Translations under genes and position numbers: made by a program
Shown here: piece after piece, positions 14,643-49,509 of the stretch
How the letters are laid out: every line of letters begins with the position of its first letter
Position numbering within the stretch: position 1 is the stretch's first letter
Sequence record: NZ_KX443399.1
DNA: 64,000 nucleotides
Source: a plasmid
Strand: one strand, 5' to 3'
The notes under the pieces: generated by a model
Seen by the model: the letters and a program-made list of their open reading frames with translations, nothing else
Database searches by the model: none
What the model was told of the DNA's origin: nothing

Positions 14643-14689
14643 CTGTTCGAGGGGAACATAACATTCGCAAGACCTGGCAAAGGTCCGTC

Positions 14690-32625: not shown

Positions 32626-32660
32626 GGAACTTTCCGCTCCGCGGCTGCATCTGACTGTGT
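32626..32660 (+). promoter_or_regulatory. ECF-type promoter (GGAAC-N16-GCATCTGA), copy 1
   Basis: GGAACTTTCCGCTCCGCGGCTGCATCTGACTGTGTAG, 45 bp upstream of the start codon at 32702. Confidence 0.6.
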
Positions 32661-32701
32661 AGACGCGGAGGAACGGTCCTCCGCATGGGGAGGAGAACGA
32701 G

Positions 32702-33406
32702 ATGAGCAGCCCGGAGAACACCGTCAGTGACTACTCGCGTCTGGACGAGGTCGACAAGAACATCGACGACCTGAAGATCGACCCGATCCAGCCGGAGACC
32801 ACCGATGAGCCGGCGCCGTCGGCGGTCGAGTCGGAACACGCTGTTCCGGGTATCGACAACGGCGCGAACCCGGTCGTCATGGGTGATCCGGAGTCCGCCA
32901 CGTTCGTCGACCCGGCGTCGCCGGCCACCGCGCCGCCCGGTAACTACGCGTCGGCCCGGGACATCGACGGCGACGGGGTCGTCGACACCACGATGATCGA
33001 CCTCGACGGTGACGGTGTTGTGGATCAGATCAACCACGATACGAACGGTGACGGGGTCATCGACGTCGTCGAGACCTCCACCCGCGGCGACGGAAAGTTC
33101 GACGCGATTGAGCGTGACACCGACCACGACGGGGCCGTCGACAAGGCCGAGCTGGACATGGATGGCGACGGCGCCATCGACACCGTCGGATTCGACACCA
33201 ACGGTGACGGCAAGCCCGACGAGATCGACATGGACACAGACGGCGACGGCCGCATCGACACCGTCGCCCTCGACACCAACGGTGACGGCACATTCGACTA
33301 CATGGGCATCGACACCGACGGTGACGGCCTGGCCGACGAGATCCTGACCGATGCCGGCCAGACCGGGGACTGGAACCAGGTCCCGGACGCCTCCGACCTC
33401 ATCTGA
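32702..33406 (+). CDS. Acidic secreted-type protein with about 12 D-x-D-G-D-G-x-x-D calcium-binding-like repeats
   Basis: Repeats such as 'DIDGDGVVD', 'DLDGDGVVD', 'DTNGDGVID' recur throughout the C-terminal two-thirds. Confidence 0.6.
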   Translation: MSSPENTVSDYSRLDEVDKNIDDLKIDPIQPETTDEPAPSAVESEHAVPGIDNGANPVVMGDPESATFVDPASPATAPPGNYASARDIDGDGVVDTTMIDLDGDGVVDQINHDTNGDGVIDVVETSTRGDGKFDAIERDTDHDGAVDKAELDMDGDGAIDTVGFDTNGDGKPDEIDMDTDGDGRIDTVALDTNGDGTFDYMGIDTDGDGLADEILTDAGQTGDWNQVPDASDLI

Positions 33407-33443
33407 CCCGGCCACCCACCCTGCACGGAGACGAGACCCGTTG

Positions 33444-34355
33444 ATGGACGACACCTACGGCATCAGCATCGGCGACGAGCTGATCACAGCCGCTACCGAC
33501 GAGACGACCGATCTGGCCGACATGGGTCTGGAGATCGGCGATCCGCTACTGCCCGGTCCGCCGATCCTTCCCTCAGACGTGGACACCGACCAGGAAGCTG
33601 CACCAGTCCCTTCCACACCGCCCGCGCCGGCCGAGCCACCGGCCCCTGCCGTGTCCGTGCCCGATCTCGATGAGCCGGCCGCTCCCGCAGTTGATACCGA
33701 CGCTGCGATCGTCGCGCCGGTCGAGGAACCTGCGGAAGGCACCCACGGCAATACGGCCGCCTGGACGGGGGATTGGTTCTTCCAGGAGGTCGACGGGTAC
33801 TGCGGGCCGTCGTCCGCGGCGCAGTTGGTCTCGGAGTACACGGGCCTGGACATCTCCGATCCGCAGCAGCTCGTCGACCGCGCTCTCGAGCTCGGGTTGT
33901 TCGTCGGTGGGGACCCGACGAACGGCATGACGATCACCTCGCTGGAGGTGCTGCTCGAGGACCAGGGCGTGCCGTGCCACGTGGAGTCCAGCAGCATGGA
34001 CGACCTCGCGGCCAAGCTCGATGACGGCTACGGGGTGATCGCGATGGTCGACTCGGGCGAGCTGTGGACACCCTCGGACGAGGTCGTTGAGGACGACACC
34101 GCCGACCACGTTCTCGTGGTCGCCGGCATCGACACCGACCGCGGCGTCGTCACGCTCTCCGACCCGGGGAATCCGAACGGCAACGGGCTCGAGGTGCCGA
34201 TCTCGCAGTTCGAGGGTGCATGGGCGGATTCGGGGCACACGATGCTCGTCGCGGACGACACCGACCCCGACCTGGTGGCCGATGCTCCTGCGGATGAGAC
34301 GGCGATGGCGTTGCAGCCGCGGCCGTGGGCGATGGTCGACCTGATCGGGACGTGA
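33444..34355 (+). CDS. Protein with a C39-like (papain-fold) cysteine peptidase domain
   Basis: 'FQEVDGYCGPSSAAQLVSEYTG ... DHVLVVAGID' resembles the Peptidase_C39_2 Q/C...H arrangement. The N-terminus is Pro/Ala-rich. Confidence 0.45.
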   Translation: MDDTYGISIGDELITAATDETTDLADMGLEIGDPLLPGPPILPSDVDTDQEAAPVPSTPPAPAEPPAPAVSVPDLDEPAAPAVDTDAAIVAPVEEPAEGTHGNTAAWTGDWFFQEVDGYCGPSSAAQLVSEYTGLDISDPQQLVDRALELGLFVGGDPTNGMTITSLEVLLEDQGVPCHVESSSMDDLAAKLDDGYGVIAMVDSGELWTPSDEVVEDDTADHVLVVAGIDTDRGVVTLSDPGNPNGNGLEVPISQFEGAWADSGHTMLVADDTDPDLVADAPADETAMALQPRPWAMVDLIGT

Positions 34356-34391
34356 CCGCGCATCCTGAGTCCCGGCACGTCAGAATTGGTG

Positions 34392-34428
34392 GGAACCTTT
34401 CCGCTTCTGGCTGCATCCAACCGGTAGG
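34392..34428 (+). promoter_or_regulatory. ECF-type promoter, copy 2
   Basis: GGAACCTTTCCGCTTCTGGCTGCATCCAACCGGTAGG. Confidence 0.6.
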
Positions 34429-34458
34429 TGACCATTTTCGACGGGAGGCGGTAGCGCG

Positions 34459-34809
34459 ATGACGGAACCGGACGTGAGCCTGTGGCAGGCGCTCGGCATC
34501 TCGGCCGACGACGCCCTCGAACAGGTCCCCGACGACGTGTGGGCGTCGGCGGTCGCGCACGCGGTCGACCCGGCCACCCCCGAGGTGGACTCCTCCCTGG
34601 TCCCGGACATGGACGACTCCGACCCGGACCCGTTCGAGAGCGACGGTGACCTCGCCGCGCTGCTGCACGACGATGCCGCCGGTAGTCACGATGGGCTGGG
34701 CGGCGTTGACGACATCGACCTCGGTGACGACTTCGACGATGCCGGTGCCGACGGCCACCACCATCACGACGCCGATGATGGTCTCGACGTCGACGACAAC
34801 GGGTTCTGA
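34459..34809 (+). CDS. Highly acidic protein (Asp/His-rich C-terminus)
   Basis: 'DDAGADGHHHHDADDGLDVDDNGF'. First gene downstream of ECF promoter 2 and upstream of the sigma factor. Confidence 0.45.
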   Translation: MTEPDVSLWQALGISADDALEQVPDDVWASAVAHAVDPATPEVDSSLVPDMDDSDPDPFESDGDLAALLHDDAAGSHDGLGGVDDIDLGDDFDDAGADGHHHHDADDGLDVDDNGF

Positions 34810-34932
34810 CCAGTCTCGATGCCGCGCAGAAGGCCTTTCGCTCTGCCCTGGGCGGGAAGCCTTCCCTGGCTGCCGGATACACTTCGCGGCGGCTGATCGA
34901 GCCGATCGAAAAGATCCTGGGGGGATCCTGAC

Positions 34933-35460
34933 GTGACTGATGGGGAATTGCTGGCCTTGTGCCGGCAGGGGCACGAGACCGCGTTCTCGGAGTTGGTGGG
35001 CCGCTACCGGAACCGCCTGTGGTCGATCTGTTTCCGGGTGACCGGCAACCGCGAGGACGCCGAAGAAGCCGTCCAGGACACGCTGACTTCCGCGTGGCAG
35101 AACCTGCACAAGTTCCGGGGCGACGCGAAGGTCTCCACCTGGCTGTACCGGATCGCCGCCAACGCCTCCCTGGCCGTGGTGCGCAAGCGCAAGGAAACCG
35201 TCGCTGACCTCGACGTCATCGAACTCGAAGACCCCGCCCCGCTCACCGCGGACAGGGTCGCCGACGTCGACGCCGTCCGCCGCGCCCTCGCCGAGCTGCC
35301 CGAGGACTTCCGCGTCGCGGTCGTCCTTCGCGAGTTCGCCGAGATGTCCTACGCCGACATCGCTGAACACCAAGGCATCCCGGTCGCCACCGTGAAAACG
35401 CGCATCAACCGGGCCCGCAAACAGCTGATCACGCTGCTCGCACCGACCCAGACCGGGTAG
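34933..35460 (+). CDS. ECF (sigma-70 family group IV) RNA polymerase sigma factor
   Basis: Region 2 'RYRNRLWSICFRVTGNREDAEEAVQDTL' and region 4 'LPEDFRVAVVLREFAEMSYADIAEHQGIPVATVKTRINRARKQL'. Confidence 0.85.
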   Translation: MTDGELLALCRQGHETAFSELVGRYRNRLWSICFRVTGNREDAEEAVQDTLTSAWQNLHKFRGDAKVSTWLYRIAANASLAVVRKRKETVADLDVIELEDPAPLTADRVADVDAVRRALAELPEDFRVAVVLREFAEMSYADIAEHQGIPVATVKTRINRARKQLITLLAPTQTG

Positions 35461-35467
35461 GCCGGCG

Positions 35468-35656
35468 GTGACAGAAGACCTGCCTGAGACCGAGCGTTTG
35501 CGCCGCGAGCTCGAGATGCTCGCCGACGTCCGTGCCCGCATCCGCGACTCTGTCGGCCCCGATGCCCGGATCCCGACCGGCACCGTGGACGCCGTTCTCG
35601 ACGACTACAACGCCGCCCTCGAACGTGAACGAGGCGACGACCCGGACGTGGAATGA
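35468..35656 (+). CDS. Small acidic protein (possible anti-sigma or partner)
   Basis: 62 aa, immediately 3' of the sigma factor gene. Confidence 0.3.
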   Translation: MTEDLPETERLRRELEMLADVRARIRDSVGPDARIPTGTVDAVLDDYNAALERERGDDPDVE

Positions 35657-36174
35657 CCGCCGAGTACGACGAGGACGAGATCGACGAGTGGCCAAGCCGA
35701 ATGGGTCGCACCCCGATCGGACCTGCGATCCACGTGCAGTTCGCCAAGGAAGCACACCTCGCGCTGATCGCTGTCGCCGAGCCTTTCGGGCAGCGTCGAC
35801 GCAGTGCCGTCATCCGTGTCGCGATCGGCCGCCTACTCGCGGACGGCACCGACCTGGACGCTCTGGTGCGTGAGAGAGAGGCGAACCGTGCCACCAGGCC
35901 GGTCTTCTCGAGCATCGTGAACATGCACCTCGGTCAGGAACTGGCCGACAACCTCTCTCGCGTCGCCCGCGACCTTGGCACCAATCGGACCGAACTGATC
36001 CGCATCGCCGTGGACCTCTTTCTCGTCGACCTCACGCAACTGCGTCTCGTCGGCACCCCGTTCGACCTCGAAACCGCGATCAACGCCGAAATCTTCAACG
36101 GCGAAGCAAACCGTGACCTACTGATCAGACGCCGATTGCGCAGGGAGGCCGAACGTCTCGGCACTGCCCAGTAG
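35653..36174 (+). CDS. Protein with two tandem ribbon-helix-helix modules
   Basis: 'IHVQFAKEAHLALIAVAEPFGQRRRSAVIRVAIGRLL' and 'VNMHLGQELADNLSRVARDLGTNRTELIRIAVDLFL'. Confidence 0.45.
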   Translation: MTAEYDEDEIDEWPSRMGRTPIGPAIHVQFAKEAHLALIAVAEPFGQRRRSAVIRVAIGRLLADGTDLDALVREREANRATRPVFSSIVNMHLGQELADNLSRVARDLGTNRTELIRIAVDLFLVDLTQLRLVGTPFDLETAINAEIFNGEANRDLLIRRRLRREAERLGTAQ

Positions 36175-36603
36175 CCGTGCTTCTTGCCGTGCGTGAGGTG
36201 GGCGGCCATTGAACCGTGTGGCTCGGTCACCGAGAAGTCGTCGGCCGGTGGCGCGGCCTGTGGGTTACGTTCCAATTCAGGGGCGGGGAGCCCCGGAATC
36301 AGGGGAGGGGAATCGAGCATGGGTGCAGCAGCATTCGTCCGCGACCGGGAAGCAGTGGGGAAGCTGCTCACGGTGGCGGCCACGATCGTCGTTCCGTACG
36401 CGCTCTGGCCGCTGGTCATGGTGTGGGCGGTCCTGTACTTCAGCACATCCGGGGTTAAGCGCCTGGCCACTCGGAGGTGAGATCAGCCGTCGGGCAGTGG
36501 CTGCACGCCGGGGGACGTGTCATCTTCCCAGCTGACGGCCGCGAATGGGAGATCGGACGTGTGGTGGCGCGGCGGTACGACCTTGCGCCGGGGCGTCGGG
36601 TCC

Positions 36604-37320: not shown

Positions 37321-37351
37321 GTGGGATGAACTCCGTTTCGGTGAGCGGTGG

Positions 37352-39193
37352 CTACAGCAGGCCGGTGCGCTGCATGAAGGACTTCGCGGCCGCCGTGTCC
37401 GGAAAACCCACCGACGTGATGATGAGTCCGCTGTCCATGCTGGCGAACTGAGTGTTGACGAGTCCGTTCTTGTCCTCAATTCGGGTTGCGGCTGTCCGGT
37501 TAGTGTTCTCGGACAGCAGTTCCGGCTTGTCGTACTCGCGCCATCCGAGAACGGTCTTCTTCGCCTCCGACTTATTGACACGTGCTGTGTAGGTGAGTGG
37601 AGCGAGCGGGTCCAGGCCTTGGGCGAGTGGTGAGTTTGTGTCGAGTCTGCATGTGACTGCCGCCTCCCCGTTGGCGGAGAATCCGGATACGAGGCAATCG
37701 CTTGCCCTTTCAAGGCTGGGCGGAAGAGCTGCGACGACCGATTCACGTGTAGCGGGATCGGCCCTAACTCCCGTCGAGGGTGTGGAGGAAGTCGATCCCG
37801 GCGCTGTCGACGGCAAGGATCCAGATGAGGACGACGCATTTGGGTCCCCCTCGCCGTTGCCGAGCGCCTGGGCGACGACGATGCCCCCACCGATGACCAC
37901 GACCGCGGCGAGCGCGGCGGCCCCGATGAGCAGGGGCTTGCGGGACTTCGCGGCAGTGGTGGGCTGGTCCACGTGCACGTCGGCAGGAAGTCGCTGCGGA
38001 GCAGGCTGCTGCGGACCGGCCCAGCTAGACGCGGGCACGGGTGTTGTGGGCGATGGCGTAGCCGGCGGTGCTGTGGGTGCCGGCGCCAGCGCCTGGGTGG
38101 CGATGAGTGCGCCGCGGGCGACGACGGTCTTGGGGTCGTCGAGGGTGGCGATCGGGCCGAGGGCGGCGAGGCGCTGGTGCACGAGCGGGATCCGTGAGGA
38201 GCCGCCGGTCAGGTAGAGGGCTTTGAGGTCGCCGCCGGTGATGCCGGCGTCGGCGAGGGTGGCCTGGGTGAGGGAGACGGCGCGGTCGATCTCGGGGGCG
38301 ATGAGGTCGTCGAACTCGTCGCGGGTCAGCGACAGGGTTTCCTGCTGGCCAGGGGCGGCGACGGTGATCGTCGCGGATGGGGCCTCGGACAGCAGCTCTT
38401 TCGCGCGGCGGATGGAGTCCTCGAGTGCGCGCAGCACGTTCACGGGTGCTTCTCGGCGCAGGTAGTCGAGAAGTTCGGGGTTGGATTCGCGGAGTTCCTG
38501 GTCGACCCAGCGGCGGATGATCGCGTCGAGGTTCTTGCCGCCGAGGCCGTTGTCGCCGCGGGCGGCGATGACGGTGAATCCGCCGGTGTCGGTGGCGGTG
38601 AGGACGGCGATGTCGAGGGTGCCGCCGCCGAAGTCGAACACCGCGATCTTCTCGCCCGCGGCGATGGTGTCGGTGCGGGTGTAGAAGTGCGCGGCCGCGC
38701 GGGGCTCGGACACTGTCGTGACGCGATCGCCGGTGAACCCGAGACGCCCCGCGGCCGACAGCAGGACCTGGATCTCCTGCGGGGACCAGCCTTCCGGGTG
38801 CGTGAGGACCAGGCGGGCCGGGGGTTGCCCGTCGTGCGCGGCGACCGCGCGGGCGAGGACGGCGCTCAGGATCGCGGCGATCGGGAGTGCGGGGTCGAGG
38901 TCGTAGCCGTTGAGGGAGAGCATCCCGTGGCCGATGACCCGCTTCGGGGAAGGCAGGAATCCGGCCGGGTTCGCTTCGGCGCGGTTGAGGGCGACCTCGC
39001 CGACGACGATCGTGTCTGGGGATTCGACGAACACCGCCGATGGGAGCAGGTTTCCGTGGTGGGAGAGCGGCAGGGTGGAGATGGTGCCGCCGATCGCGTC
39101 GGTGTGCGCGGCGGCGGTGTTCGAGGTGCCGAAATCGACTGCCAGTGACCAGGATTGCGGTGCCATTGCCTGTCCTCTTCCGTTCTCGTTCAT
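37352..39193 (-). CDS. Hsp70-family (actin-like ATPase) protein with a C-terminal TM segment and an extracytoplasmic domain
   Basis: 'LAVDFGTSNTAAA', 'IAVFDFGGGTLDIAVL' and 'LYLTGGSSRIP' match Hsp70 phosphate-1, phosphate-2 and adenosine motifs. A hydrophobic stretch 'LLIGAAALAAVVVIGGGIVVA' follows. Confidence 0.75.
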   Translation of the reverse strand: MNENGRGQAMAPQSWSLAVDFGTSNTAAAHTDAIGGTISTLPLSHHGNLLPSAVFVESPDTIVVGEVALNRAEANPAGFLPSPKRVIGHGMLSLNGYDLDPALPIAAILSAVLARAVAAHDGQPPARLVLTHPEGWSPQEIQVLLSAAGRLGFTGDRVTTVSEPRAAAHFYTRTDTIAAGEKIAVFDFGGGTLDIAVLTATDTGGFTVIAARGDNGLGGKNLDAIIRRWVDQELRESNPELLDYLRREAPVNVLRALEDSIRRAKELLSEAPSATITVAAPGQQETLSLTRDEFDDLIAPEIDRAVSLTQATLADAGITGGDLKALYLTGGSSRIPLVHQRLAALGPIATLDDPKTVVARGALIATQALAPAPTAPPATPSPTTPVPASSWAGPQQPAPQRLPADVHVDQPTTAAKSRKPLLIGAAALAAVVVIGGGIVVAQALGNGEGDPNASSSSGSLPSTAPGSTSSTPSTGVRADPATRESVVAALPPSLERASDCLVSGFSANGEAAVTCRLDTNSPLAQGLDPLAPLTYTARVNKSEAKKTVLGWREYDKPELLSENTNRTAATRIEDKNGLVNTQFASMDSGLIITSVGFPDTAAAKSFMQRTGLL

Positions 39194-40641
39194 CAGCGGC
39201 GGGCCATCATCGCGTAGGTGGCCAGCAGTGCGGTCAGTGCGGCGTCTTCGGCCGCGGACATCGTGGAGATCGACTGCCGCTGCACCCAGGCCAACCGCTC
39301 GGCGATCGCCGCCTGCACGTCGGGGTGTCCGGCGGCCGGGGTGAGGCCGACGCGTTCGGCATCAGTGGTGCCGAGCAGGATCCGGTTCAGTTCGTCGACG
39401 ACGGGGGAGTCGGGGTCGGCGGCGAGCATGCCGCGCAGGCACCCGAACAGCACGACGTCATCCATCACCGGTTCGCGGCGCACCTGGTGGACGATGAGCC
39501 GGATGTGGTCGCGCTGGGGGTGGGTGTAGGCGAGCTGCTCGAGCTCGTGGACGATCCGGCCGGCGCGGTGGATCGCGGCGAACCGGCCCAACGTCTGGTG
39601 CAGGACCTGCTGCAACGTCGCGATCCCGGAGCGGTCGGAGAGCCACTGGTTCAGCGCGTGCGCGCCGCCGGTGGCGGCGCCGCGGCCGCGGATTAGCCCG
39701 TATTCGCCGACCAGGTCGAGCAGCCGGTCCCGCAGCTCCGGGGTCAGCGGGGCGGGAGTGTCGGAGTCGACGAGGTCGATCAGCTCGAACGGATCCAACC
39801 CCGCGAGGGCGGCGACGGCGCGGGCGTCGGCCTCGGTGAGCCGGCCGGTGTGGCTGGTCTCGGCCAACAGGCCCGCGACCGGAAGCACGGTCAGCACGGT
39901 GCCGTCGAGGGCGCGGGCGAGGGTCTGCGCGTACTCGTGGGCGTGGCCGAGCGGATCACGCTGCCCGAGCGCGCCTTCCCCGAACCCATCCGCGCGCGAC
40001 AGCACGCCCAATGTGTTGAGCGGGGTGAATCCGAGCTGACGCAGAAAGCTGATCTCGTCGGCGCGCGGCACCGAGTCGAACAGGAACACCGCGGCATCGG
40101 CATCGACGGAGGCGGAGCGGGTCTGCTCGAACCCGTCGATCAGCGCCCGCCGGGTTGCGGCGTCGTTCTCCACCGTCAGGGTGGCGAGGCCCGGGGTGTC
40201 GATCAGGGCGAGGTCGCGGATCGCGGCTGAGGGCAGGAACCGGTGCACGTAGGCGATCTCGGTGACTGGCCGGCCGAGGTCGGTGGCGTGGCCGCGTTCG
40301 ATCGGACGCTGTGTCCGCTGGCCGTCGAGGCCGACGACCTCAATCCGCGAGGGTGCCCCGTCCTGGTAGACGGCGACGACGTTGGTGGCCTCGAGCGCCG
40401 CGGTCTCGGCGACCGGCGCCCCGATCAGCGCGTTCACCAGCGTCGACTTGCCCGCCTTCAACCGCCCGACGACAACCACCCGGGGCGGTGACCACAGCGT
40501 CCGGCCGATCCGGTTCGCGTGCGCGACCAGATCCCCACCGAGACCGGCGAGGGCGTGCAGGCTCCGGTCGAGGACCGCACGCACCGGATCGAGCACCGGC
40601 TGCCCCGGCGGCAACTGCTGCGGGATGCTCGGATGCACCAT
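39193..40641 (-). CDS. Bacterial dynamin-like GTPase
   Basis: P-loop 'GRLKAGKSTLVNALIG' and switch 'DTPG'. Confidence 0.7.
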   Translation of the reverse strand: MVHPSIPQQLPPGQPVLDPVRAVLDRSLHALAGLGGDLVAHANRIGRTLWSPPRVVVVGRLKAGKSTLVNALIGAPVAETAALEATNVVAVYQDGAPSRIEVVGLDGQRTQRPIERGHATDLGRPVTEIAYVHRFLPSAAIRDLALIDTPGLATLTVENDAATRRALIDGFEQTRSASVDADAAVFLFDSVPRADEISFLRQLGFTPLNTLGVLSRADGFGEGALGQRDPLGHAHEYAQTLARALDGTVLTVLPVAGLLAETSHTGRLTEADARAVAALAGLDPFELIDLVDSDTPAPLTPELRDRLLDLVGEYGLIRGRGAATGGAHALNQWLSDRSGIATLQQVLHQTLGRFAAIHRAGRIVHELEQLAYTHPQRDHIRLIVHQVRREPVMDDVVLFGCLRGMLAADPDSPVVDELNRILLGTTDAERVGLTPAAGHPDVQAAIAERLAWVQRQSISTMSAAEDAALTALLATYAMMARR

Positions 40642-42546
40642 CTATGCCACCCCCGCAGTGCTGGTGGCCGGCGCCTGCGCGGCCGCGGTCAGCTGGGCGA
40701 TGACGTTCTCGATCTCCTGGCACTTGGTGGTGATCACCCGCTGGTTCTTCGACAGCCGAGTGACCGTCGCCTCCCGGGTGGCTGCGTCGAGGCGGGCAGC
40801 TTCCTTCGCGTCGGCGATCTGCGCCTGGACCTGCTCCATCGTCGTCTTCACATGGTCCCGGTAGCGGATGACGATCTCGGGCCGGCTCATCGACAGCGTC
40901 GCCTCGAGCATCCGGGCCGTCGTCAAGCGGGCGGTGGCCAGGGTTTCCCGCAGCCAGGACAGCAGATTCGACTTCCCGCTGCGCATCGCCTTCCAGCCCA
41001 GGTTCACCCCGACCCAGACGACCCCGGCCACCGCGCCGACACCGATCAGCGCGCCGAGCATGCTGGTGCCGATCATGCCCATCGTCAAGATCGACGGATC
41101 CAACAGCCCCTGACGCTTGCTGGCCACCTCACCGGTCGTCAGCCGCGGATCCAGCGATGCAATGACCTGCTGCTCGATCTCCGCCCACACGACCTCGGAG
41201 TCGAACAGTTGCATGACGATCGCCCGGACGCCATCGAGGAACGCCTGCACGGCGGCGGTCATCGCGCCCTGGAGATCCTTTTCGATCTGCGCGGTGAAGT
41301 GCTGCGGATTGCGTCGCAGCACCGCCATCCCGGACTTGTTGATCGTTGTCGTCCACCGGGCCTTGATCTCCTCGAGGCGTTCGTCGAGCACCGCCAGCGC
41401 GGCCTGCCGGGCGAGGGTGAGGTCCCTGCCGAGATACTGCTCCCACTGCCCGGAGTGGTCCTTCAGCTCCTGAAGCCGGTCTCGTTCGGCGGTCAGCTCC
41501 GGCAACGCGGCACCGGAATCCTGCGCGATCGCGATGTCGGCGGCGTTCTTCGCGTTGATCTTCCGCAGCCCCTCGAGCGCGGTCCGCAACCCGTCGGCGG
41601 CGGGCAGCGCGGCTCCGAGGTCGAGCCGAGCGCGGATCTCCGCCCGTAGCTCCGCGATCCCCGAGGCCCGTTCCCCGGCCAGGCGGCGGGCCGGATCGGC
41701 GTGGTCGGCCGCGGCGAGCGCGCGCAACGAGGACACCCCGATGACCGGGATCTGCCTGCGCAGATGCTCCTGAAACAGGCGGCGGTTCTCGGCGGCGATC
41801 GGCTGCCACCGCCGTAGGTTCTTGTCCGTCTTCGTCACGGCGACCACGACGGAATCCACTGTCGCCGAGGCACCGCGGATGAACTCCATTTCCGGCGCCG
41901 TGAGCGGGGTCGTCGCATCACACACGACCACGAGCACGCACGCGGTTTCGGCGGTGCGGGCGGCGAGCTGCGCGTGCGCCGGATCCAGACCACCCGCACC
42001 GGGGGTGTCGACGACGACCGCGCCGCCGAGAAGGTCGGTCGCGGTGGCCACCACCGCACCGGTCGGCAGCACCTCGGTGCCCGGGTCGACCACGCGCCGC
42101 CCGCTGGTGGTGATCCAGTCGGCCAGCTCGGCGCGGTCGATGCGCTGCACCCCGCCCGGGATCAGCAGCTCCGCGGCGCCGGCGGGGAGGGTGTCGGTGG
42201 CCGGGACGAAGTGCACCGTCGCCGACGTCGACGACGCGACATCGACCGGGGACGCCCCACGCTCTCCGATCAGGGCGTTCACCAGCGACGACTTTCCGCG
42301 CTTGACCTCACCGACCACGACCACCGACCGGGTTTGGGTGTCCGCGCGTGCCTTCGCTTCCGCGAGATCGGCGGTCGCCGCGTAGCTGTATTTCCGCAGG
42401 ATCGACACCGCCGACGTGAGCACGGATGACGCCTGGTCATCGAGAGAGAGGCTGGTCGGTGCGGTCGATAGTGCAGGCACGGCGGCAGCCGACGACGCGA
42501 CAGATCCCCCAGACGATTCCACGACACTTCCCCCAGATGGTCCCAA
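40642..42546 (-). CDS. Bacterial dynamin-like GTPase (second member of the pair)
   Basis: P-loop 'GEVKRGKSSLVNALIG', 'VVDTPGAGG', followed by a long alpha-helical stalk. Confidence 0.7.
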   Translation of the reverse strand: MGPSGGSVVESSGGSVASSAAAVPALSTAPTSLSLDDQASSVLTSAVSILRKYSYAATADLAEAKARADTQTRSVVVVGEVKRGKSSLVNALIGERGASPVDVASSTSATVHFVPATDTLPAGAAELLIPGGVQRIDRAELADWITTSGRRVVDPGTEVLPTGAVVATATDLLGGAVVVDTPGAGGLDPAHAQLAARTAETACVLVVVCDATTPLTAPEMEFIRGASATVDSVVVAVTKTDKNLRRWQPIAAENRRLFQEHLRRQIPVIGVSSLRALAAADHADPARRLAGERASGIAELRAEIRARLDLGAALPAADGLRTALEGLRKINAKNAADIAIAQDSGAALPELTAERDRLQELKDHSGQWEQYLGRDLTLARQAALAVLDERLEEIKARWTTTINKSGMAVLRRNPQHFTAQIEKDLQGAMTAAVQAFLDGVRAIVMQLFDSEVVWAEIEQQVIASLDPRLTTGEVASKRQGLLDPSILTMGMIGTSMLGALIGVGAVAGVVWVGVNLGWKAMRSGKSNLLSWLRETLATARLTTARMLEATLSMSRPEIVIRYRDHVKTTMEQVQAQIADAKEAARLDAATREATVTRLSKNQRVITTKCQEIENVIAQLTAAAQAPATSTAGVA

Positions 42547-42709: not shown

Positions 42710-42759
42710 CGCGATCGGAAGAACCGTCCTCGCGAACTTCGGAAGGAATCGAGCAGGCC

Positions 42760-43341
42760 ATGACTACTCCCGCACCGCAGAACACCGGCACCACGAGCGA
42801 GTCGAGCATCCCGGAGGCGACGTTCTCGTTTGGGGCGTCGGGCTCTGTCGCGGGCTCGTCGGTCGATGCGTTCGAGGTCGACCTGAGCGACATGCTCGAT
42901 GGCCCGGGTTCGAGCGAGGTGTCGATGCAGTCCTTCGATGGCGGTATCGCTGCCGGGGGAGGGATTTCGGTCGGGGGCGGTGTCGAGGTCTCCATCGGCG
43001 CACCGGGCGGGATCCCCGAGGTCAGCATCGACGCGGGCGGCCAGTTCGCCGCCGATGGCCAGTACGGGGCGTACGGCAGCTACGACGATGTCGACCTGAG
43101 CGTCGACGCCGACACCGGCGAGAGCGAGGTGTCGATCGACTCCGCTGAAGCTGGGCTGTCTGGGTACGGAGGTGCGGCCGGCGGCGTCGAGTTCGGTGTC
43201 GATCTCGGTGTGAGCCCGCTCGACGCTGTCCCGGAGGTCGCTGTCGATACCGGGTTCGAGTTCGCCGCGGACAACGGATTCGACATCGGTGGCGGCTACG
43301 AGCACGTCGAGATCACCCAGGACGACGGCGCCGCGATGTGA
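42760..43341 (+). CDS. Acidic Gly/Ser/Asp-rich repetitive protein
   Basis: Repeats of 'VS.D...GG...'. Sits 50 bp downstream of ECF promoter 3. Confidence 0.45.
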   Translation: MTTPAPQNTGTTSESSIPEATFSFGASGSVAGSSVDAFEVDLSDMLDGPGSSEVSMQSFDGGIAAGGGISVGGGVEVSIGAPGGIPEVSIDAGGQFAADGQYGAYGSYDDVDLSVDADTGESEVSIDSAEAGLSGYGGAAGGVEFGVDLGVSPLDAVPEVAVDTGFEFAADNGFDIGGGYEHVEITQDDGAAM

Positions 43342-43358
43342 CAGGGCAGCGCATTCCC

Positions 43359-43396
43359 GGGAACCTTTTGCCTTCTCGCTGCATCAGACCTTGTGA
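43359..43396 (+). promoter_or_regulatory. ECF-type promoter, copy 4
   Basis: GGAACCTTTTGCCTTCTCGCTGCATCAGACCTTGTGA. Confidence 0.6.
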
Positions 43397-43487
43397 GCAC
43401 CAAAACCGGGGGAGCGGACCTGCGCCGCGCGTAGCGCGCATCGGCCCGCCGAGCTGCACGAACGAACACCTACGGAGGGAAGAGACG

Positions 43488-44699
43488 ATGCGAGTGAAGA
43501 TCGCACCGATAGCTGCGGCCGCGGCCGCCACGGCGGTCCTGTTGACCGGGTGCGGCACCGGATCCGCTGACGAGCCGGCGCCGGAGCAGGTGGCGGGCGA
43601 CGTCGCGGTGGTCGATGCGAGCATCCTCGACACCGGCGGCTTCCGGACCACCCCGCAGGCGCAGTTCACCACGATCGGTGACGACTTCCGGGGCCGCTCG
43701 ATCGAGGGCCAGCGGATGGCCGAGTACGTGGTCAATCCGATCGAGATCGACCCGCAGCTGACGGACCTGACCGAGATGTCGACGTACGTCATCAAGGACG
43801 GCAAGTCTCTGAGCACCCTGCTGCCGGACCCGATCCCGCAGGCCGCCGTCGACAACGGCATGCTCGCCGGGTTCTCCTCGGCCCGCTCCACGGCCGGCCG
43901 CGAGGACGATCAGTCCCTGATCAACGCCGTCCTCCGATTCCCGGACGCCGCAACCGCGCAGAAGGCCGCTACCGCGCTGCACGAGGCGACGATGACCACC
44001 GACTACGGCGCCGGGCTGCCGCAGGCGGGTGCGATCGACGTCCTGCCCAGCACGCTGGTCAGCAACCGCGAAACGGCCGGTGAGATCGCCACCAACGCGT
44101 TCACCCCGTACAACGAGTACGTCCTCTACCAGTGGACGAACACCCCCGTCGCGGAGAAGGACTGGGCGGCGAAGACCATCGCGAAGACCGTCCGCGATCA
44201 GGGCCCGCTGATCGAGAAGTTCGCGGCCACCGCGCCGGGCGACTTCGCGAACATCAAGGTCGACGTCGACAGCGTGCTGCGTCTGACGATCCCGACCGAG
44301 CGCACCTCGACGAGCGAGTTCGCCGTCTACGGCCCGCGCGGCGCTTCGCACTTCGCGAACGATCCGGCCACCAAGCTCGCGATGTTCGAGGCCACCGGCA
44401 CTACCCGCCAGGCCGTCGACCAGACCACCGTCTACCTCTCCCAGACGGAAGAGGGCTCGAAGAAGCTCGCCGAGCAGATGGGCGCTGCCTTCGAGACCGG
44501 CAGCGGCCTGACCCCGACCACGGCGCCGGCGAACGTCCCGAACGCCAAGTGCTGGACCAAGGACACCCCGCAAGGGGTGGGAACCAAGTGCCTCGTTCAG
44601 CACGGGCAGTACGTCGGCGAGATCACCACGATGGACAACGAGAAGCAGGCCCACCAGCTCACCGCCGCGCAGTACCTGATTCTCACCTCGCCGAAGTGA
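43488..44699 (+). CDS. Lipoprotein (403 aa)
   Basis: 'MRVKIAPIAAAAAATAVLLTGCGTGS' contains a lipobox. RBS GGAGGGAAGAG. Confidence 0.65.
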   Translation: MRVKIAPIAAAAAATAVLLTGCGTGSADEPAPEQVAGDVAVVDASILDTGGFRTTPQAQFTTIGDDFRGRSIEGQRMAEYVVNPIEIDPQLTDLTEMSTYVIKDGKSLSTLLPDPIPQAAVDNGMLAGFSSARSTAGREDDQSLINAVLRFPDAATAQKAATALHEATMTTDYGAGLPQAGAIDVLPSTLVSNRETAGEIATNAFTPYNEYVLYQWTNTPVAEKDWAAKTIAKTVRDQGPLIEKFAATAPGDFANIKVDVDSVLRLTIPTERTSTSEFAVYGPRGASHFANDPATKLAMFEATGTTRQAVDQTTVYLSQTEEGSKKLAEQMGAAFETGSGLTPTTAPANVPNAKCWTKDTPQGVGTKCLVQHGQYVGEITTMDNEKQAHQLTAAQYLILTSPK

Positions 44700-45246
44700 T
44701 CGCCTGATCCACACCGTATTTCAGCGCGTCGCACACCGTGGCTACACTCGTCGCTGACAGAAAACGACCGCGCCGATCGTGATCCCCCAGATCCCCAGGC
44801 GCGGCGCGCGGGATGCGCTGTCCCCCAGACACCCGCGCAGTGCCCCGGCCGTCCTTCCCCGGACGCCGGGGCACACCCCTATCCAGGGGTTGTCAGCATC
44901 GGATTGGTGAGATGACGGGAGGCGCCACTCCAGAGTTTTACGCCCCCCGCCACGCAGCATCCGCACCCAGTCGGGGTTGAGCGCGCGATGCCACGGCGTC
45001 GGCGGAGCCCCCACCAAAGGCCCTCCCCGCCGACACGAGCGAGAACACTAGCCGACAGAGCGCTGCCGCCGATCTATTCAAATGACCGAAAGGCGTTGCC
45101 GTGATGACGATCTGAATCGCTCGTGCAGGACGTCCGCGTGCATTCCCGCAAAGTCATACCGAGTACGTGGCGCCACCGTGCGCTGTGCACGGAACTGGTC
45201 GTTGCTTTCCCCTCTGCATATGCGGTGATCACCTACGATCTGCCCA

Positions 45247-45729
45247 ATGCGCAGACTCACAGCAGCTGGATTCCTCAGCACCGCCGCCGCTCTTGTTCTC
45301 GCGGCGCCCGCCTATGCGGCAGCACTACCGGCTCCTACGATTGCTGCGGAGGTCACCGGCGACGCCGTCACGGTCACCTTCACCGCACCGGAGGAAAGTA
45401 GTTGGTGTGGCAATGGAGTTATGTCCCGTGACGTAGCCGATGCGCTTGTCGAGCAGCTCGGCACGCTGTCTCCTGGTGGAGGGTTCGCCTTCCCGGAAGA
45501 TCGCGTGTGGCCGGTGGCCGTAGGTGATGACGGCGCGATGATCGACGGAGGAGAGACCTCCACGGTCACCATCGCGGGCATGAAAGACGGCAAGTACACC
45601 GCCATCACGGTCTGCACGGCATTCATCGACGGCCAGCATCAAACCTCGTACTTGGCTGCCCCGTTCCAGATCGGTGGCTCCACAGGCAGCCTGGGGAGTC
45701 TGAACCAGTTCGATTTCCTCGGTTCCTGA
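45247..45729 (+). CDS. Secreted protein
   Basis: Signal peptide 'FLSTAAALVLAAPAYAAALPAP'. Confidence 0.5.
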   Translation: MRRLTAAGFLSTAAALVLAAPAYAAALPAPTIAAEVTGDAVTVTFTAPEESSWCGNGVMSRDVADALVEQLGTLSPGGGFAFPEDRVWPVAVGDDGAMIDGGETSTVTIAGMKDGKYTAITVCTAFIDGQHQTSYLAAPFQIGGSTGSLGSLNQFDFLGS

Positions 45730-46049
45730 GCCAGCCACAGCGGGCTGGCCAGGGCAGACGGGACCGGATGAGTTCATCGGGGACATGCCCTGAGCGTGAA
45801 GAAGGACCGGGTGCGTTCGGTCGCCTCTCGGCGATGGGCGCAACGCAGCTCCAGCCGTACGGAACTCTGCGAGGGCAAGGGTTTGAGCCCGGGGGACACG
45901 GAACGCAACCGATCCAGCCATCTCAACGTCGGCCCTGGCGCACCTATTCCGAAAGCTCCGTGACCTGTACCACCGCGGTCGTAGGCTGGTGTGCATCGTC
46001 GGCCTGCGCCGAGGTCGGGAGCGGGGCCGCCAGAGCTGGAGGTTCACCG

Positions 46050-46454
46050 ATGAACCGTCTTCGTCGAGCGGTCGTCGTCGCTGGAGCCGGTGCTGTGCTG
46101 CTGTTGACAGCGCAACCGGCGGCCGCCGCACCGACGGACACCGTCTTCCCGATCCCGGTGGTGTGGGTCGGACGCGGGGTGACCAATCTCCCCGGAGGGG
46201 ACATCGAACACATCACCGCGAGCACTGATCCGGCGACGCCGGGTGTCACCCGGTTCACCGGGACGCCCTACGCGGTCCATTGGCGCAACCTCTCGACCGG
46301 CGCGAACGGCAGCGTGATCGTGGAGTGGCCGAGCGTCGAAGTCCACACCGGGCCCGGCATCGTCGTCGCCACCGCCACCCCTTCGGAAGTCATGCTCGCC
46401 GCGTGGTCGGGGTTGACTCTGCTGGCCGGTGCTGGTGGCTGGGTGGTGCCCTGA
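46050..46454 (+). CDS. Secreted protein
   Basis: RBS GGAGG and signal peptide 'VVVAGAGAVLLLTAQPAAAAP'. Confidence 0.5.
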   Translation: MNRLRRAVVVAGAGAVLLLTAQPAAAAPTDTVFPIPVVWVGRGVTNLPGGDIEHITASTDPATPGVTRFTGTPYAVHWRNLSTGANGSVIVEWPSVEVHTGPGIVVATATPSEVMLAAWSGLTLLAGAGGWVVP

Positions 46455-46457
46455 CGG

Positions 46458-47243
46458 TCAAGGTTTCGTTCGGGTGGTGCCCCAGTCGAAGCCGAGGTTG
46501 TCGAGTTCGGTGATGCGGTCCGGGGTGAGTGACGGGCGGCCGTGGCGGCGGTCGACGCGGCGGGTGGTGACCCATAGCCCGAGGCGGAATCCGTCGGAGC
46601 AGGTGAACCGGTGGGGGACGCGGGCGTGCCCGTGCTCGGCGACGTAGTCGGAGAGATGGGCGACAGCGTTCGTCCACCTCTGCTGCTCGACCGTTGCGCG
46701 GCCCGTTGCCTGGCCCCAGTCGAACCCGAGCGCGTCGAGATGGGCGATCCGCTCGGGGGTCAAGGTCGGGGTCTGGCTGCGTCGTTCGGTGCGGCGCCGG
46801 CTCACCCATGCTCCGAGTCGGAATCCGTCCTCGCATACCCAGCGGTGCGGCACGTCGAGGTTCCCGTGCTCGTCCCGGTACCGGGTCAGGCGCGCGAGAG
46901 TGGCGGCCCACTGCTCGGCGAAGCCGTCGACGGAGCGGCCGGGCCGGGGTGGCGCCCAATCGAACCCGAGCGCGTCGAGCTGCGCGATCCGCTCCGGTGT
47001 GAGGCGGTTCGCGCCGAGGCGGCGGTCCTCGCGGCGGTGCATCACCCACGACGCCAACCGCATCCCGTCCGCGCACACGTACCCCTTCGGGACGCGGGCG
47101 TGGCCGTGTTCGGCGATGAACGCCTCGAGGTGCGCGATGCCGTCCGCCCACAACTGCGCTGGTGTCTTCCCGGCCCGCCTGTCCGGTCGGGCCGGCACCA
47201 TTTCCGGATCGGTGGTGGCCGCGGCCCGGGGTGCTACTCGCAC
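46458..47243 (-). CDS. Helicase-associated (HA) domain repeat protein
   Basis: Three repeats of 'W...HL..F...HGHARVP....C.DGFRLG.WV..RR......LTPERI..LDALGFDW'. Confidence 0.7.
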   Translation of the reverse strand: MRVAPRAAATTDPEMVPARPDRRAGKTPAQLWADGIAHLEAFIAEHGHARVPKGYVCADGMRLASWVMHRREDRRLGANRLTPERIAQLDALGFDWAPPRPGRSVDGFAEQWAATLARLTRYRDEHGNLDVPHRWVCEDGFRLGAWVSRRRTERRSQTPTLTPERIAHLDALGFDWGQATGRATVEQQRWTNAVAHLSDYVAEHGHARVPHRFTCSDGFRLGLWVTTRRVDRRHGRPSLTPDRITELDNLGFDWGTTRTKP

Positions 47244-48300
47244 GCGACGCCGTCGTTGTCACGGTCGAGCTTGCTGCTGTAGCCGGGCTCGCCGCGCATG
47301 ATCGGTGCCGCGCCGGCCGCCCGGGCGGCGGCGCAGTTCGCGTACGAGACACCCGCCCCGCTCGGCGCCGGCGCAGGTGCGGGGGCGGGCGCCTGCTCGC
47401 GGACCGGCGGCGCTGGCGCGGGGGCCGCGGTGGTCGGCGCAGGAGCGGCTGCCGGGACCGGTGCGGGTGCGGGGGAACCGGTGCAGGAGGCGAGTTCGCG
47501 TGCGATCGCATCCTTCTCGGCCTGGGTCATCCACAGCCCGTACTTGAGTTTCACCTCGAACTGGCGCGTGACGTAGGTACACCGGTACGCCTTGTTCGGC
47601 GGCAACCAGGTCGCGGCGTCGCCGTCGCCCTTCTGTCCATTGGTAGGGCCGTCGACGGCCTGCAAGTTCAGGGGATCGTTGGCGAAGTTGCGGCGGGTCT
47701 GCTCGTCGAACTGCTGAGCACCCTTCTGCCACGCATCCGAGAGGGCGACGATGTGGTCGATCTGCACGGCGTTCGAGGTCCCCTCACCGCGGGTGAACGC
47801 GATCGTCCGGCCGGTGTAGGTGTCGTTCAGTGTGCCGGTGAGGACGGTGCACCCGTTCGATCCGGGCTTGATCGTGATGTCGACCAGGTCCCGGCGCAGG
47901 ATGTCGTTGCGGTATCGCAGCCGTTGTGCCCGCCCTCGACGGTGACATCGTCGGACCATGCCTGCCCGAACAGTGCCCGGTCGTAGCCGGTCTTCGGCGC
48001 CCTGCCCTTGACCGGGATCGCATCCAACGTCGCAGCGGCCGCCCGCAGAGCGTCGTCGTCGCTGACCTTGAGCAGGGGAGTGGGCGGCGGCAACGCCGTC
48101 TCCGACGACGACACGACCGCGCTGGTCGTGGCGCCCGAGGCCGCAGACGACGTGGCAGCCACATCCGGCTGCGCGTCCGCGTCCTCGCACGCGGTCAACG
48201 CCAGCACCGCGGCCGCGGATACAGCGGCGGCGATCAGTGCGGTGCGGGCACGATGGGCAGCTGCCCGGTGCGGGCGTAGCGAGGCGAGAGCAGACAACAC
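47234..48300 (-). pseudogene. Secreted lipoprotein nuclease (DUF1524 HNH-like plus C-terminal Excalibur Ca-binding domain) with a 1-nt frameshift
   Basis: The N-terminal frame has a lipobox 'LALTAC' and '...GGHNGCDT'. The downstream frame continues 'RNDILRRDL...VQIDHIVALSDAW...NLQAVDGPTNGQKGDGDAATWLPPNK' and ends with the Excalibur motif 'DRDNDGVACE'. The sequence reads ACCGCAAC where ACCCGCAAC would keep the frame. Confidence 0.55.
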
Positions 48301-48470
48301 GACGTTTCCTTCATGCAGGCTGGGGCCCGTGCACGCACTGACCCGGATGCGGATAGGCGGTGCCGCCCCCGACGGCGACACGAACCGCTATGTCTACCAG
48401 GGAGGCCGCCGAATGTAGCGAAGCATCGACGGAGTTCAGCTGCACCGCCAGCAGTCTCCCCCGGAACGCT

Positions 48471-48527
48471 GCGTCGTCTTTACAAGACGACAACGACTTG
48501 TGTACCTTCATGTCTTGTAAAGACGAA
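48471..48527. promoter_or_regulatory. AT-rich long inverted repeat (putative operator)
   Basis: GTCGTCTTTACAAGACGAC ... GTCTTGTAAAGACGAAG, 30 bp upstream of the GTG start at 48559. Confidence 0.45.
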
Positions 48528-48558
48528 GGCGTCTTCAAAACTGTGGAGGGGTACTGAC

Positions 48559-49128
48559 GTGGCAATACTTGTGAACATACGGCGCTCGGGGGCTTCAGCG
48601 GCGGACGCTAACGAGATCATGGAGGCCGCAAGCGGCAACTGGGTTGTCAGCGAGAATGCGCTCGACGAGTACGGCGACGTCGTGCTCGCGATCCTGCACA
48701 ACCGCGTGGTCGGTGCCTTCGATTTACTCTCGTGGAAAGAGGCGGAGAACGGCCGCTACCACTTCGAGCTGCGTCCGTCCGAGGACTACGCCGCACTGGT
48801 CGGACGGGACAGCCCGAGGCAGTGGAAACAGGGGCAGGCCAACCCCGTAGCGTTCGTTGACAGCGATGACCTGGATACCAGCGGCAATACAAGCGAAGCG
48901 CCCGCCCCGAAGCCGCGCCGAGGGGTCCACCGAATCGTCATCGAAACCAAGGGGCTCTCCGACGCCGAGGCTGCACGACTGCATCACGCGCTCATCGTTG
49001 TCGCCAAGGCCTCCGGGCATCTCCACGACTACCGGACCACTTCGCTGGTCCGGGAGATGAAGGCAGCCCAGGACGAAGCCGTCTTCCCCTACGGTTCGGC
49101 GAAGGCGCCGCGGGCACAAAAGGACTGA
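48559..49128 (+). CDS. Hypothetical protein
   Basis: RBS GGAGGGG 6 nt upstream of the GTG. 189 aa. Confidence 0.45.
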   Translation: MAILVNIRRSGASAADANEIMEAASGNWVVSENALDEYGDVVLAILHNRVVGAFDLLSWKEAENGRYHFELRPSEDYAALVGRDSPRQWKQGQANPVAFVDSDDLDTSGNTSEAPAPKPRRGVHRIVIETKGLSDAEAARLHHALIVVAKASGHLHDYRTTSLVREMKAAQDEAVFPYGSAKAPRAQKD

Positions 49129-49192
49129 TCGCCACACCGTCGGCCTGGGCGGCCGTTCGCCTGGTGCAGCACCCGTTTGACATCGAAAGTCG

Positions 49193-49229
49193 GGAACCTT
49201 TCTGCGGCAGAACGCATCTGAATGTGTGA
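49193..49229 (+). promoter_or_regulatory. ECF-type promoter, copy 5
   Basis: GGAACCTTTCTGCGGCAGAACGCATCTGAATGTGTGA. Confidence 0.6.
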
Positions 49230-49263
49230 GCGGGAAATACGATCCCGCCGCTTCGAGAGAGGG

Positions 49264-49509
49264 ATGCAGATGGGGAAGAAGATTGCGCAGGGTCTGGTGC
49301 TGGCAGCGGCCGCAGCGGGTGTGACGCTCGCGTCGATCGGAGTGGCGCAGGCCGCCACGTACGGCCCGTACGCCTACGACCAGTGCCGAATGATCCAGGC
49401 AGGCGTGACCACCCTTCAGCCGGGGCAGGTTCTGTGCACCACCGCCAACGGTCTGCCGGGCGCAAAGTACGTCCTGCCCATGACGCAGGGTGGGGTCACG
49501 ACGCGGTAG
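49264..49509 (+). CDS. Small secreted protein (about 80 aa)
   Basis: Signal peptide 'GLVLAAAAAGVTLASIGVAQAATY' and two Cys residues. Confidence 0.45.
   Translation: MQMGKKIAQGLVLAAAAAGVTLASIGVAQAATYGPYAYDQCRMIQAGVTTLQPGQVLCTTANGLPGAKYVLPMTQGGVTTR

Follow-up and report, generated by a model that had tools for sequence, protein, structure and literature searches.

A 64,000-nt stretch of plasmid DNA from sequence record NZ_KX443399.1 (hereafter the window) contains six copies of a two-block sequence motif, each directed at the gene that follows it, together with a gene (34933–35460, plus strand) for a sigma factor of the extracytoplasmic function (ECF) type. We propose that RNA polymerase carrying this plasmid-encoded sigma factor reads the six sites as promoters, one of them autoregulatory, a reading to which we give a probability of about 0.78. 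A preliminary description, made from the letters of the sequence alone, had listed five copies and suggested a self-contained ECF regulon of secreted or acidic proteins. Judged by sequence identity, the window is part of a pVAPN-type linear virulence plasmid of Prescottella (Rhodococcus) equi, its region at 32–50 kb being 94–96% identical to the P. equi plasmids pVAPN1572 and pVAPN94-27 and to one further record.

Scanning of the 64 kb with the pattern GGAAC-N16-GCATCWGA revealed five exact matches, all on the plus strand (32209, 32626, 42673, 43360 and 49193), against a mean of 0.01 in dinucleotide-preserving shuffles, none of 100 of which reached five. A sixth site, at 34392, was found with two mismatches allowed and carries a variant -10 block, GCATCCAA. 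With a matrix derived from the six, the sites score 43–54 bits and no other position in the window exceeds 9.5, so that the repeated motif noted earlier is real. The earlier list of five was right in substance, but it lacked the site at 32209 and placed the one that starts at 43360 at 43359. The shared -10 block GCATC(T/A)GA holds for the five exact sites and not for 34392, and a trailing N4-GTGA, given as part of the motif, is present at three of the six sites and missing from the other three. The partly conserved spacer was borne out, with TT followed by T/C and then C/T at its start. All six sites also share an extended -35 block, GGGAAC(C/T)TT, which adds a preceding G and a trailing (C/T)TT to the original pattern. 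The promoters so predicted are as follows.

P1, 32209–32237, plus strand: GGAAC-N16-GCATCTGA with G before it; exact match, 52 bits; identical in pVAPN1572 and pVAPN94-27.
P2, 32626–32654, plus strand: GGAAC-N16-GCATCTGA; exact match, also found by the matrix.
P3, 34392–34420, plus strand: GGAAC-N16-GCATCCAA; 44.5 bits with the matrix; predicted to be autoregulatory.
P4, 42673–42701, plus strand: GGAAC-N16-GCATCTGA; divergent from the dynamin operon.
P5, 43360–43388, plus strand: GGAAC-N16-GCATCAGA; exact match, also found by the matrix.
P6, 49193–49221, plus strand: GGAAC-N16-GCATCTGA; exact match, also found by the matrix.

Motif scans covered the window, other plasmids and the comparison loci described below. 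The preliminary description had called for a search of the rest of the plasmid, and this search, run on the complete pVAPN94-27 (left 50 kb and right end), gave no site beyond the six that this plasmid shares with the window; the rest of the window gave none either. At window position 53235 there is a lone GGAAC-N17-GCATCCCT match without the GGGAAC.TT extension, which was taken as a chance match.

The six sites are all intergenic and on the same strand as the next gene. From motif end to start codon the distance is 47 nt for P2, 38 for P3, 58 for P4, 99 for P5 and 42 for P6, an overall range of 38–99 nt; the P1 motif ends 175 nt before the start of a 32-amino-acid (aa) open reading frame (ORF). 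A range of 35–50 bp, proposed earlier for all listed sites, thus fits three of them but not P4, P5 or the unlisted P1.

Repeats on a plasmid might have a function other than transcription initiation: they could be binding sites for a protein, such as the ribbon-helix-helix (RHH, CopG-like) protein that is encoded in the sigma operon itself, plasmid maintenance sites, or remnants of small repeats, and repeated operator or partition sites are frequent on plasmids. The architecture of the motif argues against this, as it consists of two blocks joined by a spacer that is fixed in length and free in sequence, has neither dyad nor direct-repeat symmetry, and always points at the next gene from promoter distance. 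The flanks of the six sites are unrelated to one another; what is repeated is therefore a short motif rather than copies of a longer, mobile repeat. The motif also accompanies the sigma gene in two comparison loci (L003 and L008) where an RHH gene was neither found by tblastn nor annotated nearby. Furthermore, a sigma-70 consensus scan of the 18-kb region at 32–50 kb revealed no housekeeping-type promoter that might take the place of the motif, and a terminator scan there was at chance level. We regard a non-promoter function of the repeats as highly improbable.

By its domain content, the product of 34933–35460 is a canonical ECF sigma factor. It matches Pfam Sigma70_r2 (6e-18, residues 21–87) and Sigma70_r4_2 (2e-17, residues 114–165) and no other domain, lacking regions 1.1 and 3, and its 95.5 bits with the ECF superfamily model TIGR02937 exceed the cutoff of 42.9. 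Of the named NCBIfam models, mycobacterial SigM (NF007225) scores highest, at 142.3 bits and below its cutoff of 190; the scores for RpoE (TIGR02939, 107.9 against 236.15) and SigW (NF007223, 119.3 against 209; TIGR02948, 109 against 243.1) are also below cutoff. Its closest relatives in the PDB are SigW, AlgU and RpoE (5wuq at 2e-25, 6in7 and 1or7), and SigE, SigH and CnrH (4cxf, 1.9e-11) are among the matches as well. The six sites have the composition of ECF-type promoters, with AAC in the -35 block and a short -10 block at a fixed distance of 16–17 bp, and conform to GGGAAC(C/T)TT-N13-GCATCNRA. The assignment of the protein to the ECF family, and the conservation of motif, spacing and targets near homologous sigma genes described below, uphold the ECF promoter architecture of the preliminary description.

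In the mechanism that we propose, GGGAAC(C/T)TT would act as the -35 element and be bound by sigma domain 4, while the -10 element, bound by domain 2 and built around an invariant TC...A, would lie within GCATC(T/C/A)(G/A)A, 16 nt farther on; transcription would start a few bases downstream. P3 would drive the sigma operon, which comprises four genes.

34459–34809, plus strand: acidic partner protein, 116 aa; an ORF and candidate regulator of the sigma factor.
34933–35460, plus strand: ECF (group 4) sigma factor, 175 aa; assigned by Pfam, TIGR02937 and PDB relatives.
35468–35656, plus strand: helical protein, 62 aa, third gene of the P3 operon; an ORF.
35653–36174, plus strand: RHH (CopG-like) protein, 173 aa; Pfam RHH_1, 1.2e-4.

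P3 lies 38 nt before the partner gene, and the sigma gene follows after a gap of 124 nt without a strong terminator (z -1.0), from which we infer that the sigma gene is co-transcribed from P3; farther downstream, the start of the RHH gene overlaps the stop of the 62-aa ORF. Since P3 would drive its operon, the sigma factor would feed back positively on itself. This is the autoregulation suggested in the preliminary description, and it agrees with the layout at sequence level, where a cognate promoter stands ahead of the operon of its own sigma factor here and in other replicons. The other five promoters would drive a structured RNA with a 32-aa ORF (P1), a DxDG calcium-binding-type protein and a C39-like peptidase (P2), a Gly/Asp-rich protein (P4), a DUF7373 lipoprotein (P5) and a secreted peptide (P6).

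Comparison with other replicons carries most weight in linking motif and sigma factor. A tblastn search placed the sigma gene on 45 plasmids, including 18 of Rhodococcus, 5 of Gordonia and 4 of Prescottella, usually near a dynamin/GTPase/Hsp70 cluster and, in Rhodococcus, downstream of DxDG, C39-like and acidic genes. Rhodococcus and Gordonia plasmids whose sigma homologues are 51–94% identical carry this two-block motif nearby, ahead of the same gene families. Both blocks are kept on P. equi p1-WH99, whose sigma factor is 94% identical, at the sites ahead of the DxDG and Gly/Asp-rich genes (P2 and P4), while the spacers there have changed; likewise, P6 in pVAPN94-27 keeps both blocks and the peptide gene with a different spacer and upstream context. 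The motif precedes the DxDG operon, the dynamin operon and the DUF7373 gene on R. erythropolis pLRE138 (sigma 69%); the Hsp70 gene, the DxDG operon, the partner–sigma pair and the DUF7373 gene on R. opacus pLPS8 (64%); and the Hsp70, DxDG and DUF7373 genes in Rhodococcus sp. 1R11 (59%). Two Gordonia plasmids (sigma 51%) carry GGGAAC-N17-GCAAC..A before DxDG-type, MspA porin, DUF7373 and small secreted peptide genes, and a Gordonia chromosome (sigma 47%) and a R. rhodochrous chromosome (59%) carry GGGAAC-N16-(C/A)CTCCAA or CTCTTA before partner and DxDG genes.

The upstream regions of seven DxDG-type genes from seven replicons, when aligned, show a footprint: they average 53% identity, and within the promoter part GGGAAC.TT and GCA.C..A alone are invariant. 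Twenty sites of the Rhodococcus clade yield the consensus GGGAAC-C-TT-T-C, 11–12 free bases, GCATC-(T/C)-(G/A)-A. The preliminary description had named conservation of the spacing in homologous plasmids as a test in advance, and the spacing was found to be kept in 29 sites from other replicons, with 16 nt in 17 of the 20 Rhodococcus-clade sites and 17 nt in the remaining 3. The -10 block varies with the sigma clade, its fourth position being T in 20/20 Rhodococcus-clade sites and A in 9/9 Gordonia plasmid sites, the latter with a spacing of 17 nt; the sigma-2 region differs between the same clades, with FRGDA and RIAANA in Rhodococcus against FRGES and RVAANN in Gordonia.

A profile search of genome contigs with the sigma alignment yielded, among the matches listed, four useful loci (L008–L011) and mostly generic ECF genes, and the 76 remaining loci were used as a negative control. 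The strict pattern GGGAAC-N-TT-N13/14-GCA[AT]C has 17 matches in 217 kb near sigma homologues at least 51% identical, and none in 1.18 Mb around the 76 distant ECF genes, which are of similar G+C. The footprint, the co-variation between clades, the counts of the strict pattern and the shared targets together tie the motif to this sigma clade.

The motif might still be read by a chromosomal ECF sigma factor of the host, with the plasmid sigma factor redundant or devoted to other targets. GGAAC is a -35 element common to many Mycobacteriales ECF sigma factors, among them SigE and SigH (PMC10012870) and SigM, for which it is GGAACCG in M. abscessus (PMC13491425); homologues of the plasmid sigma factor also occur on the chromosomes of other species, and the scans for motif and sigma factor covered replicons other than the P. 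equi chromosome. Set against these points, in every replicon examined the motif occurs only close to this sigma gene, and it is absent near the 76 other ECF genes, its -10 block changes with the sigma clade, and one site always stands ahead of the sigma gene or the partner gene itself. Moreover, the known host-type -10 elements (CGTT, GTT) differ from CATC (PMC10012870). On this balance, reading by a host sigma factor appears improbable, and we favour recognition of the motif by the plasmid's own sigma factor.

Several points weigh against that preference. The -10 block is CATC, or TC..A, and not the common CGT; a host sigma factor of the same specificity, or more target sites, may exist on the P. 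equi chromosome; and neither Pfam nor NCBIfam searches of the neighbouring proteins revealed a recognisable anti-sigma factor nearby. Many of the compared sites are orthologous and not independent counts, and the two Gordonia plasmids are closely related. Full-text literature searches, which did not cover the original pVAPN paper, turned up neither data on transcripts, start sites or binding in pVAPN plasmids nor a description of this sigma factor, the motif or DUF7373, and the main text of the 2021 ECF classification paper has no mention of dynamin, Peptidase_C39 or Rhodococcus.

As a candidate regulator of the sigma factor, the acidic partner encoded immediately upstream ranks first; from its gene position, it may control sigma activity. 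About 50 N-terminal residues of the protein are conserved (LG..P..VW..A...DP...D..VPDMDD), the remainder being a disordered acidic tail that contains His, and the AlphaFold2 model of the protein gives a predicted local distance difference test (pLDDT) score of 70–86 for residues 1–60, with three short helices within residues 8–35 and disorder past residue 60. Pfam, NCBIfam and PDB searches found no relative of the partner. A search with it gave 38 protein clusters, all named 'hypothetical', and those with a named source come from Rhodococcus, Prescottella and Gordonia, with one partial Streptomyces record.

Of the ten comparison loci searched, nine have the partner gene beside the sigma gene, the exception being L009. 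A copy of the motif ahead of the operon that holds the sigma gene was found in L002, L005, L010 and L090, the last being the R. rhodochrous chromosome, where a 120-aa gene follows the sigma gene in the partner position. The L006 copy stands before the partner gene, downstream of the sigma gene. The same -10 variant as at P3 stands before partner or sigma genes in L002, L005 and L006; in all four Rhodococcus-clade replicons that have such a promoter, the block ends in CCAA. Because GCATCCAA recurs in other Rhodococcus replicons, 34392 is not a degenerate copy, and its presence in all four partner/sigma promoters suggests that the strength of the feedback loop may be tuned. Homologues of the 62-aa protein are encoded upstream of the sigma gene in L006 and beside the DUF7373 gene in L003, and a CopG-family gene is located downstream of the sigma gene in L005 also.

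Outside the sigma operon, the predicted transcription units and neighbouring genes are as follows.

32244–32565, plus strand: predicted P1 transcript with leader, 32-aa ORF and hairpin; RNA fold z-score -3.76.
32702–33406, plus strand: DxDGDG-repeat (EF-hand-like) protein, 234 aa, acidic; Pfam EF-hand_5, 4.7e-8; no signal peptide.
33444–34355, plus strand: C39-like cysteine peptidase, 303 aa, second gene of the P2 operon; Pfam Peptidase_C39_2, 5.7e-8.
37352–42546, minus strand: dynamin-like/GTPase/Hsp70-like operon; Pfam Dynamin_N and HSP70.
42760–43341, plus strand: Gly/Asp-rich acidic protein, 193 aa; an ORF; no signal peptide.
43488–44699, plus strand: DUF7373 lipoprotein, 403 aa, lipobox LLTGC; Pfam DUF7373, 8e-51, and DUF7373_C, 6e-28.
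49264–49509, plus strand: secreted peptide, 81 aa, with a signal peptide ending AQA|A and two Cys; an ORF with the ribosome-binding site GAGAGAGGG before its ATG.

The unit downstream of P1 might specify a small RNA, a small peptide or the two together. Its leader (32244–32343, 100 nt) is closed by a 14-bp stem (GAACGGGACAGGAT...ATCCTGTCCCGTTC), and the 32-aa ORF (32413–32511) stands behind AAGGAG, encodes a hydrophobic, Asn-rich peptide (MNIVYLASNLLALANNALVFGANLNNLGSARV) and is followed by a strong hairpin at 32520–32565. A 1-nt deletion in pVAPN1572 breaks a longer, 66-aa frame and leaves the 32-aa ORF intact. An Rfam scan of 31–51 kb, including the P1 transcript, found no family. A tblastn search of plasmids with the 32-aa peptide gave no match, and is uninformative because it missed even the identical pVAPN copies, probably since the query is short and partly masked as low-complexity. 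At this unit the PGAP annotation of pVAPN1572 has a 174-aa coding sequence on the minus strand, which looks spurious.

The targets had been described as all exported or highly acidic. Recognisable export signals are present in the lipoprotein and the 81-aa peptide, whereas the DxDG protein, the C39-like peptidase, the Gly/Asp-rich protein and the partner have none, and the designation 'secreted' is therefore not established for these four. A YxxxD sequence close to the N-terminal end of the DxDG protein was weighed as a possible type VII secretion signal and dropped, as it is not conserved in the homologues.

Among the target families, the motif stands before DxDG, partner/sigma and DUF7373 genes in most replicons and before Hsp70, dynamin and MspA porin genes in some. 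It precedes the DxDG homologues in eight loci (L002, L003, L004, L005, L007, L008, L010 and L011), and a C39-like gene occupies the same position on Rhodococcus plasmids. Variants of the motif precede the DUF7373 genes of L003, L004, L005 and L008. The Gly/Asp-rich protein has no Pfam match, and among the loci compared its homologue was found in L002 only; the 81-aa peptide is annotated as a hypothetical protein in both pVAPN1572 and pVAPN94-27.

The DUF7373 lipoprotein was modelled by AlphaFold2 with a mean pLDDT of 88, and among PDB folds the model comes closest to the extracellular sensor domain of PknH (4esq, E 3e-5), with TiME next; PDB sequence searches with the lipoprotein and with the C39-like peptidase returned no match. 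Because its modelled fold resembles the Mycobacterium tuberculosis PknH sensor domain and TiME, the lipoprotein looks like an envelope ligand-binding or sensor protein.

As stated in the preliminary description, P4 is divergent from the dynamin/Hsp70 operon, which runs on the minus strand; no minus-strand motif was found upstream of that operon in the window. In other replicons the motif does precede the dynamin operon (L003) or the Hsp70 gene (L005 and L008). On many Rhodococcus and Gordonia plasmids, the operon of the dynamin-like GTPase pair and the Hsp70-like protein accompanies the sigma module. PADLOC analysis gave weak LeoA/LeoBC matches for the dynamin pair and no match for the sigma factor or the regulon targets.

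MspA-family porin genes are located on the Gordonia plasmids at 14571–15227 and 12790–13437 of L004 and at 9605–10264 of L007, and the clade-specific motif at L004 15361 and L007 10400 in each case stands before one such gene. From this position of the motif, the porin appears to be part of the regulon on the Gordonia plasmids.

The whole gene set forms one compact island on the R. rhodochrous chromosome (L090 5510–14202), in the order 251-aa gene (in the DxDG position), GrpE-like, Hsp70, DUF7373, sigma and the 120-aa gene, and ending with two dynamin-like genes on the opposite strand. The preliminary description had presented a self-contained regulon on a virulence plasmid backbone. The regulon remains the favoured reading, but the module also occurs on environmental Rhodococcus and Gordonia plasmids and on some chromosomes; by its distribution it is a conserved backbone unit of Mycobacteriales and not specific to virulence plasmids, and it would represent an old conserved unit of Rhodococcus, Gordonia and Williamsia replicons.

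This distribution can be set beside the structure of the plasmid. pVAPN is a linear, ruminant-associated virulence plasmid with a backbone like that of the environmental Rhodococcus plasmid pNSL1 (PMC5434932). The first 15.6 kb of the window is 99.9% identical to pVAPN94-27, and the match ends there. The stretch at 6–20 kb has a lower G+C content (55–60%) and matches LysR- and Lrp/AsnC-family regulator genes of the equine pVAPA plasmids; on account of the low G+C and the regulator genes common to pVAPA, it is presumably the vap pathogenicity island. The sigma/promoter region sits in backbone of 65–70% GC, outside the low-GC stretch. Between P5 and P6, the segment 44700–49190 varies among pVAPN variants, and pVAPN94-27 has a DUF6615 gene there.

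As to function, remodelling or protection of the cell envelope or membrane seems the most likely response, because the module also holds two dynamin-like GTPases and an Hsp70-like protein. A broader view, possible though doubtful, is that the sigma factor, partner, DxDG protein, PknH-like lipoprotein and dynamin/Hsp70 genes make up a single unrecognised signalling and repair module, in which the partner would be an anti-sigma or co-sigma factor of a new class, the lipoprotein, through its tandem PknH-like sensor domains, would convey an envelope signal, and the output would be membrane or envelope remodelling through the dynamins, the Hsp70-like protein, porins and the C39-like peptidase. Such a module might act during conjugal transfer or entry into the host cell, in parallel to the part played by SigM in mycobacterial conjugation; a link to conjugation is speculation by analogy.

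The motif and its comparison supply a ready, testable regulon for the pVAPN backbone, where many genes are annotated as 'hypothetical', and they join seemingly unrelated genes (DxDG, C39-like peptidase, DUF7373 lipoprotein and dynamin/Hsp70 cluster) in one conserved module that many large Rhodococcus and Gordonia plasmids carry. The clade variants of the -10 block (GCATC, GCAAC and CTCCAA), each with its own sigma homologue, form a natural set for studies of ECF promoter specificity and could be used for orthogonal expression switches in actinomycetes. For R. equi biology, a plasmid-encoded envelope regulon is possibly relevant to plasmid transfer or intracellular survival. General knowledge of the ECF sigma mechanism is unchanged.

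Among known systems, the envelope-stress ECF sigma factors RpoE (E. coli sigmaE), SigW (B. subtilis) and AlgU (P. aeruginosa) share with the plasmid sigma factor the two-domain build of about 175–190 aa and, on the proposed reading, a promoter before the own operon and a small, envelope-enriched regulon. E. coli sigmaE reads GGAACTT and GTC (PMC6648896), to which the -35 block GGAAC(C/T)TT and the TC core of the -10 block are close. Unlike RpoE and SigW, the sigma factor of the window scores below their equivalog cutoffs, is plasmid-borne and has no membrane anti-sigma factor of the RseA/RsiW type, its neighbour being a soluble acidic protein. Corynebacterial SigE and SigH, which read GGAACN-N16-CGTT (PMC10012870), have promoters of the same geometry (GGAAC-N17-CATC here) with different -10 letters. 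Mycobacterial SigM belongs to the same bacterial order and provides the best-scoring named model; it controls a small, ESX-4-centred regulon of exported and effector-type proteins and is needed in the M. smegmatis recipient for conjugation (PMC13491425). The plasmid sigma factor differs from it in falling below the model cutoff, in lacking an RsmA-like anti-sigma factor and in its targets, which are DxDG, C39-like and DUF7373 proteins and, elsewhere, dynamin, Hsp70 and porin; no WXG100 or other ESX-family Pfam match was found among the regulon targets.

In the 2021 classification, the Mycobacteriales groups ECF125, ECF127, ECF292, ECF287 and ECF295 have soluble anti-sigma factors or none, and work by a mechanism that is not understood (PMC8999054). 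The likeness to these groups is by description only, that of an actinobacterial ECF sigma factor without a classical membrane anti-sigma factor. The closest parallel in organisation is found in a different phylum, in the cnrYXH-cnrCBA system on pMOL28 of Cupriavidus metallidurans. There the plasmid-encoded ECF sigma factor CnrH reads a few promoters of its own on pMOL28, including one that heads the CnrH operon, and serves metal resistance under the defined regulators CnrY and CnrX; in sequence it is distant from the sigma factor described here, though among its PDB relatives. With CnrH, a self-contained plasmid ECF regulon is already a known kind of system, and what is unusual in the present one is the uncharacterised partner and the conserved, unstudied set of targets.

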